This document shows positions 42,984 to 47,174 of a stretch of 64,000 bases of DNA, piece after piece. The stretch lies in contig OZ245365.1 in the NCBI GenBank assembly GCA_965226495.1, positions 5,632,001 through 5,696,000 of the forward strand. The letters are read 5' to 3'. Under the pieces are notes generated by a model. It was not told the origin of the DNA and made no database searches. It saw only the letters and a program-made list of their open reading frames with translations. The position numbers and the translations under genes were made by a program. The stretch is from Candidatus Marinacidobacterales bacterium (GTDB lineage Bacteria; Acidobacteriota; Vicinamibacteria; Marinacidobacterales; DATDRI01). Positions within the stretch are counted from its first letter, which is position 1. Every line of letters starts with the position of its first letter.

Positions 42984-44012
42984 GTGATTTATGGTCTCCG
43001 AGTCGTCGCAGTCGGCGGGGGCACTGGGCTTGCCGCCCTGCTGACCGGACTCAAGAAGTTCGTCGACCCACCTGATTCCGGCTCTCTCTCGAAAGACTCT
43101 GTTTACTTCGCCGACCTCGCCGCGTTGGTAACGGTCACCGACGATGGCGGCAGCTCGGGCAGGCTACGCGACGAACTCCAGATACTCCCGCCTGGAGACG
43201 TTCGGAATTGCTTACTGGCACTTTCGAGCGACGAGTCGCTACTGTCTTCCCTATTTCAGTATCGCTTCGAAGGCAACGGTGGTCTCGGCGGCCACAACTT
43301 TGGCAATCTTTTCCTGGCGGCGCTCACTTCCGTAACCGGTGATTTCTATAGCGCGGTCCGCGCCGCCTCCCACGTCCTCGCCATCGAAGGACGCATTTTC
43401 CCCTCGACGACTCAAAGCGTCTCTTTGGTTGCCAAGCTCGAGGATGGGAGCGAAGTTCGCGGCGAAACACGAATCAGCGCTTCGACGGAGACCATCCGCA
43501 GCGTTCGCCTGGATCCGCCGGATTGTCCGCCTCTCGAAGACTCTCTCGCCGCTATCGAGGAAGCGGACCTCATCCTCATCGGACCGGGATCTCTCTACAC
43601 CAGCCTGATTCCCAATCTCCTGGTCCCGGGGGTCGTCGAGGCGATCTCTCGATCGCAAGCTTTGGTGGTGTACTTGTCGAACATCATGACCCAACCGGGC
43701 GAGACGACGGGCTACAGCGTACGCAACCACGTGGACGCGTTATTGACAAACTGCCCAAGGCTCGAACTGTCTTTCGTTCTCGCCAACGGCACGCCGGTAC
43801 CCGAGCCGACGCGCGAACGCTATCGCTCCGAGGGCGCGGAACCTGTCACCTGCTCCCCTGCCGACGAGACCGCGCTGTCCTGCCCGGTACTGGTCGAAGA
43901 CCTCCTCGGCGCCGGAGAACCGGTGCGGCACGATGGCAGGAAAACCGCGGAAGCACTCCGAACACTCTTTCCGCAGGCTCGCTTCGAAACGACCCGGCGT
44001 CTGACGCGTTAG
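42984..44012 (+). CDS. yvcK: YvcK/GlmR (CofD-like) family protein
   Basis: [60 protein letters not shown]. Confidence 0.93.
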
Positions 44013-44042
44013 GTCGTGTGGTGACGCTAGAGGGCGTCCAAC

Positions 44043-44094
44043 ACGTCTGGCGAGCTCAGCATACTGGCAACTTCGTGCACTGACCGCCGGAAGG
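44043..44094 (+). repeat. Degenerate copy of the structured intergenic repeat family
   Basis: acgtctggcgagctcagcatactggcaacttcgtgcactgaccgccggaagg; shares tggcaacttcg..actgac with the copy at 61883. Confidence 0.65.
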
Positions 44095-44130
44095 CGTGGT
44101 CGATTAGAAAGTGCTAGGCTAGATCAATCA

Positions 44131-45324
44131 ATGCCGTCACAACTTACGCTGGTTCTTTGGTCCGGGTCCGGCGAGAACTACGCAAGGGACCTCCTCGGCA
44201 GGCCGGTCTGGAAACGGACCCTGGAGGCTGCTCAACCGCTCCGACCGAAGCGCTCCCTGTTGGTTCTGGACAAAGGCGGCGGTGCCGCTCTAAACGAACT
44301 CAACGGTATCGAGCCGGTAGCCAAGAGACGCTTCTCCGAGGCGCTTGCCGGACTGAGAGGAAAGCTACTTTTCCTCCCTGCGGAGATGCCATGTGTGACC
44401 GTCCGCAGCTTGCGGCGTCTGGTAGCCGCAGCGCGTTCGGGACCCTCTCGGCTAGCAACAAAGAGCGGCACTCCGATCGTCTGCTGTACTGCGGGACGCC
44501 TTCGAGCCGCAAGCGGCGCATTCCGAAACGGTCTCGATTCCCTCGCCGATCACATACACGCTTCCGAGGTTCGACCCGCGACAACGGAAGAGCTCCTACT
44601 GGTCCAAACGAACGCTGATTGGGCGAAGGCGATACAGTTTATTCGTCGCCGAACCGTAGATCGCCTCATGGCGAGCGGCGTCCTCGTCGAGGATCCATCG
44701 ACCGTGCACATCGATCCCGACGTGAAAGTCGGTCGCCGCACCAGAATTCGTGGGTGGGTTGTGATCGAAGGCGCAAGCCGCATTGGAACTGACTGCGATG
44801 TGGGAAGCTTCACTCACGTTGTAGACTCGGTCGTGGGTTCACGCACCGTACTCCTCGATCATTGCTTCATCCGCCAAAGCCGCATCGGTCGCGGGGCCCA
44901 AGTCGGCCCATTCGCGCACCTGCGTCCGGACTCGACCCTCGGTAACAAAACGAAGGTCGGGAACTTCGTGGAGATGAAAAAATCGACCCTTGGCGAAGGA
45001 AGCAAGGCCCCGCACCTGACCTACCTGGGCGATGCGGAAGTCGGCCGGCGCGTCAACATAGGCGCCGGCACTATCACTTGCAACTACGATGGACGCACCA
45101 AACACCTCACCGTCATCGAGGACGGCGCGTTCATCGGAAGCGACGTGCAACTGGTAGCTCCGGTTCGGATCGGCCGTGGGGCTTATGTGGCCGCCGGCTC
45201 TTCGATCGTGTATGACGTGCCCGCGGGTTCTCTGGCGATCGCGCGGGGCCGGCAGGTTGTGAAGCACGACTACGTGCGTCGTGCTCGAGCCAAGAAATCT
45301 GGGCCTAGTAAGAGTCGACCGTAG
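44131..45324 (+). CDS. glmU: GlmU homolog: intact left-handed beta-helix acetyltransferase, degenerate N-terminal uridylyltransferase domain
   Basis: C-domain [36 protein letters not shown]-domain lacks LAAGxGTRM, GDxP, GYGR, EYYLTD and GVN; extended -10 tgctaggct 10 nt before ATG. Confidence 0.9.
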
Positions 45325-45332
45325 ATCACCTA

Positions 45333-47174
45333 ATGTGCGGAATCATCGGTTACGTGGGACCCAAGCCGACGGTCGAAGTGTTGATCGATGGGCTCAAGCG
45401 CCTCGAATATCGAGGCTACGACTCGGCGGGCTTGGCGGTTGTCCGGGACGGAAAACTCAGCGTGCTCCGCTCCCAAGGGAAGCTCAACAATCTGGAGCGA
45501 CAGCTATCGAAAACCGAGCTCCAGGGGAGCTACGGACTCGGCCATACCCGATGGGCCACTCACGGCCGTCCCAACGAAGAGAACGCGCACCCTCACCGGG
45601 ATTGCACCGAGACTTTGGTCGTCGTTCACAACGGCATCATTGAAAACTATCTCGACCTCAAGGCAAAGCTGTCCAAAGAAGGCCATCGGTTCGTCACCGA
45701 GACCGATACCGAGGTCATAGCTCACCTGATCGAGAAGCGTCTCGACAAGAGCCTGGAGCAGGCAGTCTTGGACGCTCTCGAAGAGCTCGAAGGCGTTTTC
45801 GCATTCGCCGCCCTCTCCGCGAAAGACCCGGACAAACTGGTCGCCGCTCGTAACGGTCCACCCCTGGTCATCGGGCTGGGAGAAAACGAGGCCTTCATCG
45901 CCTCGGACGTTCCGGCCTTTCTCTCCCACAGCCGCGACGCCGTCTTTCTCGACGATGGTGAGGTGGCAGTCGTTCGTTCCAACGGGGTTATCCTCATGGA
46001 TCGTGACGGCGTCGAAAAAGACTGTTCTCCGACGCGCATTACGTGGGACCCCATACAGGTGGAGAAACAAGGTTTCAAGCACTTCATGCTCAAGGAAATC
46101 TATGAGCAGCCGCGCACGGTCCGCGACACGCTACTTGGGCGTTATTCTCTCGATAGCGGGCGCGTGCACCTCGAGGAAGTCGGATTACAACAGGATCACA
46201 TCAGGCGGCTCGAGAAGATCACGATCCTTGCTTGCGGTACGAGCTGGCATGCCGCGCTCGTCGGAAAGTTCCTCATCGAGGCCAACGCGCACTTACCGGT
46301 GCAGGTAGACGTCGCTTCGGAGTTCCGCTACCGACACCTCATTCTCGGGAAGGATGATCTGGTCGTCGGCATCACCCAATCGGGAGAGACCGCGGACACG
46401 CTGGCGGCACTTCGCGCCGCCGGTGACAGTGGGGCCACCACCCTGGCCATTTGTAACGTGACCGGGAGCATGGCGACTCGTGTCTCGAACGCGACGCTAT
46501 ACACTCACGCGGGACCCGAGATCGGTGTTGCCTCCACTAAGACGTTCGCCGCGCAGTTGGTGGCGCTGCACCTGCTGGCCCTTTACCTTGCGCAGGCTCG
46601 AGGAAGCCTCTCCTCCGAAGAAGTCGGAGAGCGACTCAACGAGCTCGCGCGAGCCGCCCACTTCATGGAGCAAGTGCTCACGCTCGCCCCCAAGATCGAA
46701 TCGATCGCCAGAGATTTCTACATGGCATCCAATTTTCTCTATTTGGGACGCGGCCTCCTCTACCCCATCGCCCTCGAGGGGGCGCTCAAGCTCAAAGAGC
46801 TTTCCTATATTCACGCAGAGGGATATCCGGCGGGCGAAATGAAACACGGCCCGATCGCGCTCATCGATGAGCGGATGCCGATCGTCGCCCTTGCTCCTTC
46901 CGACTCGCTTTTCGAGAAGATGGCCAACAACATCCAGGAAGCCAAGGCACGCGGTGCGCGCCTCATCGTGTTCGGAACCGAGGGCGAGTCGCGTCTCAAG
47001 CAGATTCTCGATGACGAGCACGATCGGCTCATCGAGCTTCCGCCGCATCCCGAAGCCATCTCGCCACTGCTAATGGTCCTGCCGCTTCAACTGCTCGCCT
47101 ATCACATCGCCGTCGCGCGCGGTTGCGACGTCGACCAGCCGCGTAATCTGGCCAAGTCGGTGACTGTTGAGTAG
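45333..47174 (+). CDS. glmS: Glutamine-fructose-6-phosphate aminotransferase
   Basis: MCGIIG, LEYRGYDSAG, GHTRWATHG, QSGETADT, PRNLAKSVTVE. Confidence 0.98.
   Translation: MCGIIGYVGPKPTVEVLIDGLKRLEYRGYDSAGLAVVRDGKLSVLRSQGKLNNLERQLSKTELQGSYGLGHTRWATHGRPNEENAHPHRDCTETLVVVHNGIIENYLDLKAKLSKEGHRFVTETDTEVIAHLIEKRLDKSLEQAVLDALEELEGVFAFAALSAKDPDKLVAARNGPPLVIGLGENEAFIASDVPAFLSHSRDAVFLDDGEVAVVRSNGVILMDRDGVEKDCSPTRITWDPIQVEKQGFKHFMLKEIYEQPRTVRDTLLGRYSLDSGRVHLEEVGLQQDHIRRLEKITILACGTSWHAALVGKFLIEANAHLPVQVDVASEFRYRHLILGKDDLVVGITQSGETADTLAALRAAGDSGATTLAICNVTGSMATRVSNATLYTHAGPEIGVASTKTFAAQLVALHLLALYLAQARGSLSSEEVGERLNELARAAHFMEQVLTLAPKIESIARDFYMASNFLYLGRGLLYPIALEGALKLKELSYIHAEGYPAGEMKHGPIALIDERMPIVALAPSDSLFEKMANNIQEAKARGARLIVFGTEGESRLKQILDDEHDRLIELPPHPEAISPLLMVLPLQLLAYHIAVARGCDVDQPRNLAKSVTVE

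Follow-up and report, generated by a model that had tools for sequence, protein, structure and literature searches.

GlmU, which combines a glucosamine-1-phosphate (GlcN-1-P) N-acetyltransferase with an N-acetylglucosamine-1-phosphate (GlcNAc-1-P) uridylyltransferase, is held to be bifunctional and universally essential and is viewed as an antibiotic target. Here we analysed a glmU-like gene situated between yvcK and glmS in a 64-kb window (G000:C1:5632001-5696000; positions without a prefix refer to this window) of the complete single-contig 6.34-Mb genome G000 of a Candidatus Marinacidobacterales bacterium. The gene encodes a GlmU-like protein of 397 aa with a degenerate N-domain, which we refer to as GlmU*. 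The open reading frames (ORFs) of YvcK (42984..44012, 342 aa), GlmU* (44131..45324), and GlmS (45333..47174, 613 aa), all on the + strand, lie exactly where an earlier note on this DNA had placed them. That note had proposed that the pathway to UDP-N-acetylglucosamine (UDP-GlcNAc) has been split here and that YvcK, also known as GlmR, has displaced the uridylyltransferase of GlmU. We confirm the loss of the uridylyltransferase motifs from GlmU* and give an even chance to a different division of labour, in which two half-dead bifunctional enzymes, GlmU* and an ST0452-like protein encoded elsewhere in the genome, split the job and YvcK regulates GlmS, with no more than an accessory enzymatic part.

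It is already known that the two activities of GlmU can be separated. In Capnocytophaga canimorsus, a GlcNAc auxotroph, GlmUCc is reported to be a monofunctional GlcNAc-1-P uridylyltransferase (Renzi et al. 2015, PMC4358021), and the same report mentions some Bacteroidetes genera with GlmU orthologues that consist of the left-handed beta-helix (LbH) only. This system is a precedent for GlmU activities divided over two genes, and a GlmU fragment that has only the acetyltransferase is described there as functional (PMC4358021). It is the acetyltransferase, however, that is missing in Capnocytophaga, whereas GlmU* retains it and has its dead half on the uridylyltransferase side. For Staphylococcus aureus, an impaired GlmU (Ser169 variant) and reliance on NagU have been reported, together with truncated GlmUs in many NagU-bearing bacteria and, in the PVC superphylum especially, acetyltransferase-only GlmUs (Fong et al., bioRxiv 10.64898/2026.06.23.733835). 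As that preprint presents it, the likeness lies in an impaired or absent GlmU uridylyltransferase and in a second, non-orthologous enzyme taking over. In our case, by contrast, the dead domain has been retained, neither point-mutated nor deleted, and the candidate partner is of archaeal type. GlmR/YvcK itself is tied to the pathway in Bacillus subtilis, where it is reported to bind UDP-GlcNAc and to stimulate GlmS (PMC7525490, PMC6171935); links between GlmR, GlmS, and UDP-GlcNAc are also described in PMC13046274. Uridylyltransferase activity has been reported for the GlmR proteins of Listeria, B. subtilis, and S. aureus (PMC10128056, PMC13046274).

GlmU* shares the domain order of the canonical GlmUs of E. 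coli, S. pneumoniae, and M. tuberculosis, namely a nucleotidyltransferase fold, a long helix, and the LbH. Its acetyltransferase domain is closely similar to theirs, with ~30% identity to the canonical GlmU 1hm8 over the aligned residues (Z 25.9, VIA-align). Canonical GlmUs of the same class also adjoin glmS. GlmU* differs from them in lacking the uridylyltransferase motifs and in scoring below the family cut-off: TIGR01173 matches residues 141-385 only, corresponding to model positions 206-450, with 297.4 bits (cut-off 366.85). The Pfam scan of GlmU* found no nucleotidyltransferase family, NTP_transferase included, and returned only Hexapep/LbH, with 90.9 bits for the Hexapep match of the C-half. 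For the comparison of motifs we used a MAFFT alignment of GlmU* and four canonical GlmUs, which come from the same class but other orders. The LAAGKGTRMKSxxxKVLH of the canonical proteins is represented by an altered stretch of 10 residues and a gap of 7 residues. The segments QLGTGHA, GYGR...EINSGIY, and EYYLTD are gaps in GlmU*, LYGDVP has become LPAEMP, GVN has become LVQ, and altogether the N-domain is ~65 residues shorter than the canonical one. Each of the motif changes listed in the earlier note was thus confirmed. Judging from these motifs, the N-domain (approximately residues 1-160; 44131..44610, + strand) appears to be devoid of the P-loop Arg/Lys segment, of the metal and uridine contacts, and of the whole sugar-binding lobe.

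The remaining part of the protein (44611..45324, + strand) comprises a linker helix and the LbH GlcN-1-P N-acetyltransferase domain and is apparently intact. The 11-residue motif with the catalytic His is present, and H295 as well as a 13-residue block of this half are invariant in 31 family members, in agreement with what had been read from the sequence before. GlmU* would accordingly be described best as a putative monofunctional GlcN-1-P N-acetyltransferase. As 31 aligned homologues (46-91% identity) share both the reading frame and the N-domain of GlmU*, a frameshift by sequencing error, a caveat raised in the earlier note, is excluded.

An AlphaFold2 model of GlmU* reached a mean predicted local distance difference test (pLDDT) score of 79.8, with the blocks of the N-domain mostly at 83-94 over most of residues 1-130. 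Residues 2-242 of the model align with truncated E. coli GlmU (1fwy; Z 20.6, root mean square deviation 2.9 Å over 228 residues) and residues 2-175 with IspD cytidylyltransferases (Z 18-19, 2.2-2.5 Å). Because of these alignments the N-terminal 160-175 residues are predicted to be a shrunken nucleotidyltransferase fold. A search with the sequence of the N-domain alone among 1.84 billion representatives gave four matches at E<=0.001 and no canonical GlmU; it is fold, colinearity, and synteny, and no sequence score, that support the kinship to the GlmU N-domain. Purifying selection acts on the dead domain, more loosely than on the live C-domain. Using the Nei-Gojobori method on two close, unsaturated pairs (small counts, 145-150 codons), the ratio of nonsynonymous to synonymous substitution rates (dN/dS) was 0.18 for the N-domain and 0.11 for the C-domain in the first pair (dS 0.22), and 0.27 and 0.21, respectively, in the second (dS 0.10). 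The N-domain may therefore be regarded as a probable pseudoenzyme whose nucleotidyltransferase fold is kept by selection. The suggestion of the earlier note that it is retained for a noncatalytic role is reasonable in view of this purifying selection.

We then considered how widely the degenerate GlmU is spread, using an evenly sampled set of 81 genomes of the class. The own order is represented by 28 genomes from three families, f1 (three genomes including G000), f2 (19), and f3 (six). None of the 28 has a GlmU match that exceeds the TIGR01173 cut-off or reaches the N-half; in 27 a match to the C-half only was found, and one f2 genome (G047) has none at E<=1e-30. Among the other 53 genomes of the class, 44 have a GlmU over the cut-off (42 full-length, two cut short by the assembly), seven a C-half-only match, one (72% complete) an N-half only, and one none. 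Homologues of GlmU* with 365-410 aa, covering 95-100% of the protein and going down to 46% identity, have Acidobacteriota and Vicinamibacteria as their sources. In the MAFFT alignment the N-domain of the f2 proteins is more degenerate still. The degenerate GlmU is a lineage-wide trait and not an accident, and this state is probably ancestral to the whole order. Four of the seven C-half-only genomes from other orders were inspected (G018, G072, G046, and G021; L034-L037). In these the N-domain is wholly absent, the gene encoding 227-247 aa, or 327 aa if extended to the longest possible start. These N-less glmU genes are still found within TPR-glmU-(glmS)-uvrD, although the locus of G021 gave no match to GlmS. 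A metagenome search with the whole of GlmU* returned no close relative among the matches listed (identity of the best segment <=56%, mostly in the C-terminal half). A scan of contigs with the GlmU* alignment gave mostly canonical GlmUs and four full-length relatives, one of which duplicates a known locus.

The degenerate N-domain could in principle be weakly active through a rebuilt active site, so that GlmU* would still be bifunctional. The kept nucleotidyltransferase fold and the purifying selection would be in line with this, as would E85, which is nearly invariant and located at the position of the Asp in the canonical YGDVP. Nevertheless, we regard this explanation as very improbable. The loop segment with the catalytic Lys is deleted and the Arg of GxGTR is gone, the segments forming the uridine and sugar pocket are deleted as well, the equivalent of E85 has been lost in family f2, and other lineages do without the N-domain altogether.

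UDP-GlcNAc is still needed in this organism, since glmM (486.8 bits), murA (590 bits), and a pair of lpxA genes (324 and 286 bits) are present in G000, each scoring above its cut-off. Consequently, a GlcNAc-1-P uridylyltransferase must exist, and with the motifs of GlmU* lost it has to work in trans. A second full-length glmU, which the earlier note had advised to look for, was sought throughout the genome, and no canonical full-length glmU was found in the complete 6.34 Mb.

The uridylyl transfer would most likely be carried out by a protein of 390 aa with a nucleotidyltransferase and an LbH part, encoded at G000:3699114-3700286. Its best solved relatives are the structures 5z09 and 2ggo of ST0452 from Sulfolobus tokodaii (E 4e-40, residues 3-375). 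The two proteins can be aligned over the full length and share the domain arrangement and the nucleotidyltransferase motifs. In 15 members of the ST0452-like family AAG, STRT, RPK, GT, NGDD, EK, RGE, and W.P..Y.W are invariant; the consensus reads LAAG(K/R)STRT, RPKPL, QRGTADA, LNGDD, VEKP, RGELELPDF, and WLPLTYAWDVL, and the residues between the motifs are nearly invariant. The residue preceding GD is Tyr in 2ggo and Asn in 5z09, presumably an engineered ST0452 variant with raised GlcNAc-1-P activity; in the ST0452-like family this Asn (N103) is invariant. The LbH part is variable in the same 15 members, and an HLSYVGD-type motif is present only in the most distant one. ST0452 is reported to possess both GlcNAc-1-P uridylyltransferase and GlcN-1-P acetyltransferase activity; for the acetyltransferase, His308 is described as essential and Tyr311 as well as Asn331 as important (PMC4909775). 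In the alignment H308, Y311, and N331 pair with D309, R312, and S332 of our protein, which also differs from ST0452 in its bacterial, mesophilic context. The ST0452-like protein thus seems to have an intact nucleotidyltransferase half and substituted acetyltransferase residues, which would be the reverse of GlmU*.

Orthologues of the ST0452-like protein were found in all 28 genomes of the own order, near full length and with 41-73% identity (222-620 bits). Outside the order the best match in the class sample reaches 116.6 bits and 36% identity and belongs to the paralogues, and in the phylum sample the gene was detected in one of 150 other genomes (G090). Family members carry JGI names such as 'UDP-N-acetylglucosamine diphosphorylase / glucose-1-phosphate thymidylyltransferase...'. 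In substance, the ST0452-like gene answers the search for another GlcNAc-1-P uridylyltransferase that the earlier note had advised, and it speaks against YvcK as the displacing enzyme. The gene of G090, a genome from another class of the phylum, shows 42% identity (L213, L214). No canonical GlmU and no YvcK were found in G090, the assembly of which is 94% complete and consists of 510 contigs. A second protein of G090 with nucleotidyltransferase and LbH parts has GRLSFIGDS where ST0452 has PHLSYVGDS, with Arg at the position of the acetyltransferase His.

Several observations weigh against the division of labour between GlmU* and the ST0452-like protein. With TIGR03992 (Arch_glmU) the latter scores 269.4 bits over positions 2-389 of 393, just under the cut-off of 292.1. 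Enzymes of the ST0452 type take several sugar-1-phosphates, and the specificity for GlcNAc-1-P is something that we only infer. The neighbouring genes, feoB, a Fur/DtxR-like gene, and a DEAD-box helicase gene, are silent on the role of the protein. The co-distribution of the ST0452-like protein with the degenerate GlmU concerns one clade and represents at most one evolutionary event, with no independent replication. Moreover, the lineages of other orders with an N-less GlmU have no ST0452-like orthologue in the class sample, so some other nucleotidyltransferase can serve there and possibly here too. Finally, three points speak for YvcK: it keeps the catalytic residues reported for GlmR (D53/D54 and N211), purified GlmR proteins are reported to form UDP-GlcNAc in vitro (PMC10128056), and among 12 assessable loci 11 show a tight linkage of yvcK and glmU*, with stop and start codons that overlap in some.

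The first alternative arising from these points is that another sugar-1-phosphate nucleotidyltransferase is responsible, for example the MurU/ManC-like protein with nucleotidyltransferase and LbH parts at G000:3677386-3678480, and that the ST0452-like protein makes a different nucleoside diphosphate sugar. G000 encodes at least six further proteins of the NTP_transferase family. In the Vicinamibacteria with an N-less GlmU (G018, G072, G046, and G021) we found no ST0452-like orthologue, no PF01704 (NagU-like) protein, and mostly no YvcK, so that a generic nucleotidyltransferase must serve there. Matches of the MurU-like type with an LbH occur in 79 of the 81 class genomes (mostly 30-47% identity; 62-65% in f1). 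A family that is present class-wide, however, does not track the state of GlmU. Most of the paralogues have evident other roles, as is the case for rmlA_long (478 bits) and GalU (376 bits), both over the cut-off, for GlgC, and for a ManC-like gene by a phosphohexomutase gene. The ST0452-like protein is nearer than any of them to a GlcNAc-1-P uridylyltransferase that has been characterised, and we consider this alternative rather unlikely. In the ManC-like case (G000:C1:2183114-2185533, - strand) the gene, again with nucleotidyltransferase and LbH parts, lies directly before a second phosphohexomutase gene (194 bits to glmM, under the cut-off); the two are probably a GDP-mannose pair, which accounts for that paralogue. 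Two kinds of candidates for the N-less lineages were rejected: their matches with a nucleotidyltransferase part only are ordinary RmlA proteins encoded beside rmlB and rmlC, and the MurU-like proteins with an LbH were dismissed for their class-wide occurrence.

A NagU as in S. aureus was also looked for. Proteins of the PF01704/NagU type are absent from G000, from the two other f1 genomes, and from the six f3 genomes (0/9 in total), a difference from the S. aureus system; the control genomes gave 0/14, as expected. All 19 f2 genomes encode a PF01704 protein, which was considered as a NagU complementing the absence of YvcK in this family. This candidate was rejected since its best solved relatives are UDP-glucose pyrophosphorylases in 16 of 16 cases listed (best 7.6e-87); it is not UAP-like. 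For the same reason it probably replaces GalU, and it is silent on GlcNAc. The f2 protein is eukaryote-type, which is unusual for bacteria: the one that was checked (G032, L124) is nearest to trypanosomatid and plant UDP-glucose pyrophosphorylases.

The second alternative is the proposal that YvcK/GlmR is the main GlcNAc-1-P uridylyltransferase and has displaced the GlmU N-domain, the dead domain being left to serve YvcK as scaffold or docking site. YvcK, a CofD-related protein, matches TIGR01826 with 349.2 bits (cut-off 196) and aligns in full length (residues 6-327) with B. halodurans YvcK (2hzb/2o2z, E 4e-80). TVTDDGGSS and SLIPNLL are conserved, and among 35 relatives D54, N211, and R315-H316 are invariant and D53 is kept in at least 90%. 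The residues D53/D54 and N211 match those reported as catalytic, D40, D41, and N198 of Listeria GlmR and D38 and D39 of B. subtilis GlmR (PMC10128056, PMC13046274), and mutating the two Asp and the Asn together is reported to lower the activity of Listeria GlmR ~100-fold (PMC10128056). R315 may correspond to R301 of B. subtilis, the UDP-GlcNAc-binding Arg. The protein therefore resembles GlmR/YvcK of B. subtilis and L. monocytogenes in its family, in the DD, N, and R-H residues, and in its tie to UDP-GlcNAc synthesis and GlmS.

The position of yvcK likewise favours a connection with GlmU*. YvcK is encoded in all f1 genomes (2/2 and G000) and in all six f3 genomes, in one of them as a remnant only. 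In eight of these nine genomes the gene lies between the TPR gene and glmU*; the ninth (G038) is too fragmented. It stands directly upstream of glmU* in G000, G056, G071, G011, G074, G014, and G059, as a remnant in G080, and in three further loci (L043, L044, and L046). In L039 the yvcK and glmU* ORFs share 1 nt when both are taken from their first start codons. Furthermore, 30 YvcK clusters match GlmU* clusters in the size of the longest source sequence, a comparison made by hand that is a proxy for co-location only. The purifying selection on the N-domain of GlmU* would also agree with a docking function.

Despite this linkage, the distribution of YvcK does not follow that of the degenerate GlmU. 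In f2 the degenerate GlmU is found in 18 of 19 genomes and YvcK in none of the 19, many of which are single-contig. Among the C-half-only genomes of other orders one of seven has YvcK, not adjacent to glmU. The co-occurrence of degenerate N-domains with an adjacent yvcK, proposed as a check in the earlier note, thus fails in f2, and YvcK is missing from six of these seven. Conversely, YvcK is frequent alongside full-length GlmU, for example in 10/10 genomes of family f11, and the same high-scoring YvcK subtype is present in four genomes with full-length GlmU (G015, G048, G058, and G069), on other contigs. The yvcK gene (L041:6671-7495, - strand) of G080, an f3 genome in one contig of 9.2 Mb, has an in-frame internal deletion of ~150 codons. 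The deletion fuses ...ADLSAL to YTSLVPNLL..., so that the DDGGSS...GPGSL core is gone and the conserved C-terminus is still in frame; it reflects either a function lost in nature or an artefact of the assembly. No second yvcK copy was found in G080 at E<=1e-20, and this genome keeps glmU* and an intact ST0452-like ORF. In S. aureus, natively regulated GlmR is reported not to substitute in vivo for the joint loss of NagU and the GlmU uridylyltransferase (bioRxiv 10.64898/2026.06.23.733835). The absence of YvcK from f2 and from the N-less genomes and the deletion in G080 argue that YvcK is neither a necessary nor a general replacement of the uridylyltransferase, with the reservation that these are clade-level patterns comprising few independent events. 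With the ST0452-like protein at hand throughout the order, we regard YvcK as the main enzyme as improbable.

A related possibility is restricted to f1 and f3. There YvcK/GlmR could be a physiologically required uridylyltransferase that is physically coupled to GlmU*, with the pseudo-domain as a docking or UDP-GlcNAc-sensing module and GlmS, GlmU*, and GlmR forming a metabolon encoded in one operon. If true, this would be the first case of GlmR as primary and not accessory enzyme, but we hold it to be at best equally improbable. A prediction of the complex of GlmU* and YvcK scored 0.00 in two runs, which were made with no controls and are not evidence either way.

Of the proposal made in the earlier note, the split pathway therefore stands, as there is no canonical glmU in the genome and the motifs are gone; YvcK as displacing enzyme is not supported in view of f2, G080, and the ST0452-like protein, and an accessory uridylyltransferase role is possible. 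Returning to the division of labour between GlmU* and the ST0452-like protein, YvcK would most likely have the function known from Bacillus, sensing UDP-GlcNAc and activating GlmS, and would be at most an accessory uridylyltransferase. The observed basis of this reading consists of the lost motifs, the fold, the selection, the phyletic patterns, and the synteny; all enzymatic activities and the role of the dead domain are deduced from it. The position of yvcK next to glmS, a linkage to glmU*-glmS that is genuine and conserved, fits what is published on GlmR. In f1 and f3 the gene appears to have entered the cluster between the TPR gene and glmU*. Unlike in the rapZ-yvcK-whiA operon known for GlmR/YvcK, yvcK lies here between the TPR gene and glmU*-glmS; rapZ is ~3.2 Mb away (G000:2406460) and whiA was not found in the genome, as the earlier note had surmised from the neighbourhood.

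In our literature search we did not find in print a selected pseudo-nucleotidyltransferase GlmU domain across a whole order, the pairing of such a GlmU with an ST0452-type protein lacking the complementary activity, or the insertion of yvcK into the glmU-glmS cluster. Literature on GlmU together with Vicinamibacter was not found, and the arrangement is not described among the matches listed for truncated, acetyltransferase, or pseudoenzyme GlmU. The term 'Acidobacteri' is absent from the main text of bioRxiv 10.64898/2026.06.23.733835, whose supplements, possibly listing Acidobacteriota, are outside the scope of this statement. A whole bacterial order is thus added in which the uridylyltransferase half of GlmU would be a conserved pseudoenzyme, within a class that also contains lineages that deleted the N-half. 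This supports the recent view that alternative routes to UDP-GlcNAc are not rare. The probable reciprocal decay would be a clean natural subfunctionalisation of analogous enzymes, bacterial GlmU providing the acetyltransferase and the archaeal-type protein the uridylyltransferase. The gene name 'bifunctional GlmU' is a mis-description in genomes of this order. As these organisms would have no GlmU uridylyltransferase, they offer a natural background for testing the disputed in vivo role of GlmR/YvcK in uridylyl transfer.

The genes discussed belong to a group of five closely packed genes on the + strand at 42.2-49.4 kb. The first encodes a TPR-repeat protein of 188 aa (42394..42960; Pfam TPR families) and the last a UvrD/PcrA-type helicase of 727 aa (47167..49350; Pfam UvrD-helicase, UvrD_C, and PcrA_UvrD_tudor). 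GlmS is full-length (TIGR01135 825.1 bits, cut-off 418), with an N-terminal MCGI and two SIS domains in Pfam. The intergenic distances from the TPR gene via yvcK and glmU* to glmS are 23, 118, and 8 nt, and glmS and uvrD overlap by 8 nt. TPR-yvcK-glmU*-glmS-uvrD is probably a co-transcribed five-gene operon. Upstream of the TPR gene a sigma-70-like sequence, TTGACC-18-TATAAT, matches the consensus in 11 of 12 positions (42204..42233, + strand) and is a possible operon promoter; two such matches were found against 1.2 expected in shuffles, and they are consensus matches only. The Rfam scan of the window gave no match, and hence no glmS ribozyme.

The order TPR-glmU-glmS-uvrD is kept class-wide, including genomes with canonical GlmU. 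Among 18 loci of relatives, 12 have a TPR homologue upstream of glmU or yvcK (canonical GlmU 2/4, N-less 4/4, f1/f3 5/5, f2 0/5), and a UvrD match follows beyond glmS in 15 of 18, adjoining glmU itself in G021 and G041. In four of the five f2 loci inspected (L029-L033) the gene that follows glmU* has a GlmS match confined to the SIS/isomerase half (query 252-610), with 27-33% identity. For the f2 genome G041 no GlmS match was found at the glmU* locus, to which the search was confined.

Further along the window, gyrA, gyrB, dnaN, and dnaA on the - strand are followed by yidC and gidB on the + strand (51034-61839), and at 58-60 kb the GC skew, negative before, reaches +0.14. This probably places the replication origin near 59-60 kb, ~12 kb from the glmU* operon. 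Elsewhere in the genome (G000:C1:1899934-1901388 and ~3595437), two copies with the same score encode a protein of 484 aa with NTP_transf_3 and a membrane domain bearing a DGxDGEVAR-type motif. In sequence it resembles a fusion of a cytidylyltransferase with a CDP-alcohol phosphotransferase, and the identical scores suggest a duplicated region. Within the window there is also a cluster of the nonulosonic acid type (20270-24799 and 35155-37333) that encodes two synthases of the NeuB family and also two CTP_transf_3 cytidylyltransferases, of which one is fused in a protein of 567 aa; a DegT-type aminotransferase and an NAD-dependent epimerase/dehydratase are encoded further along. The products of this cluster are likely to be further consumers of UDP-GlcNAc.

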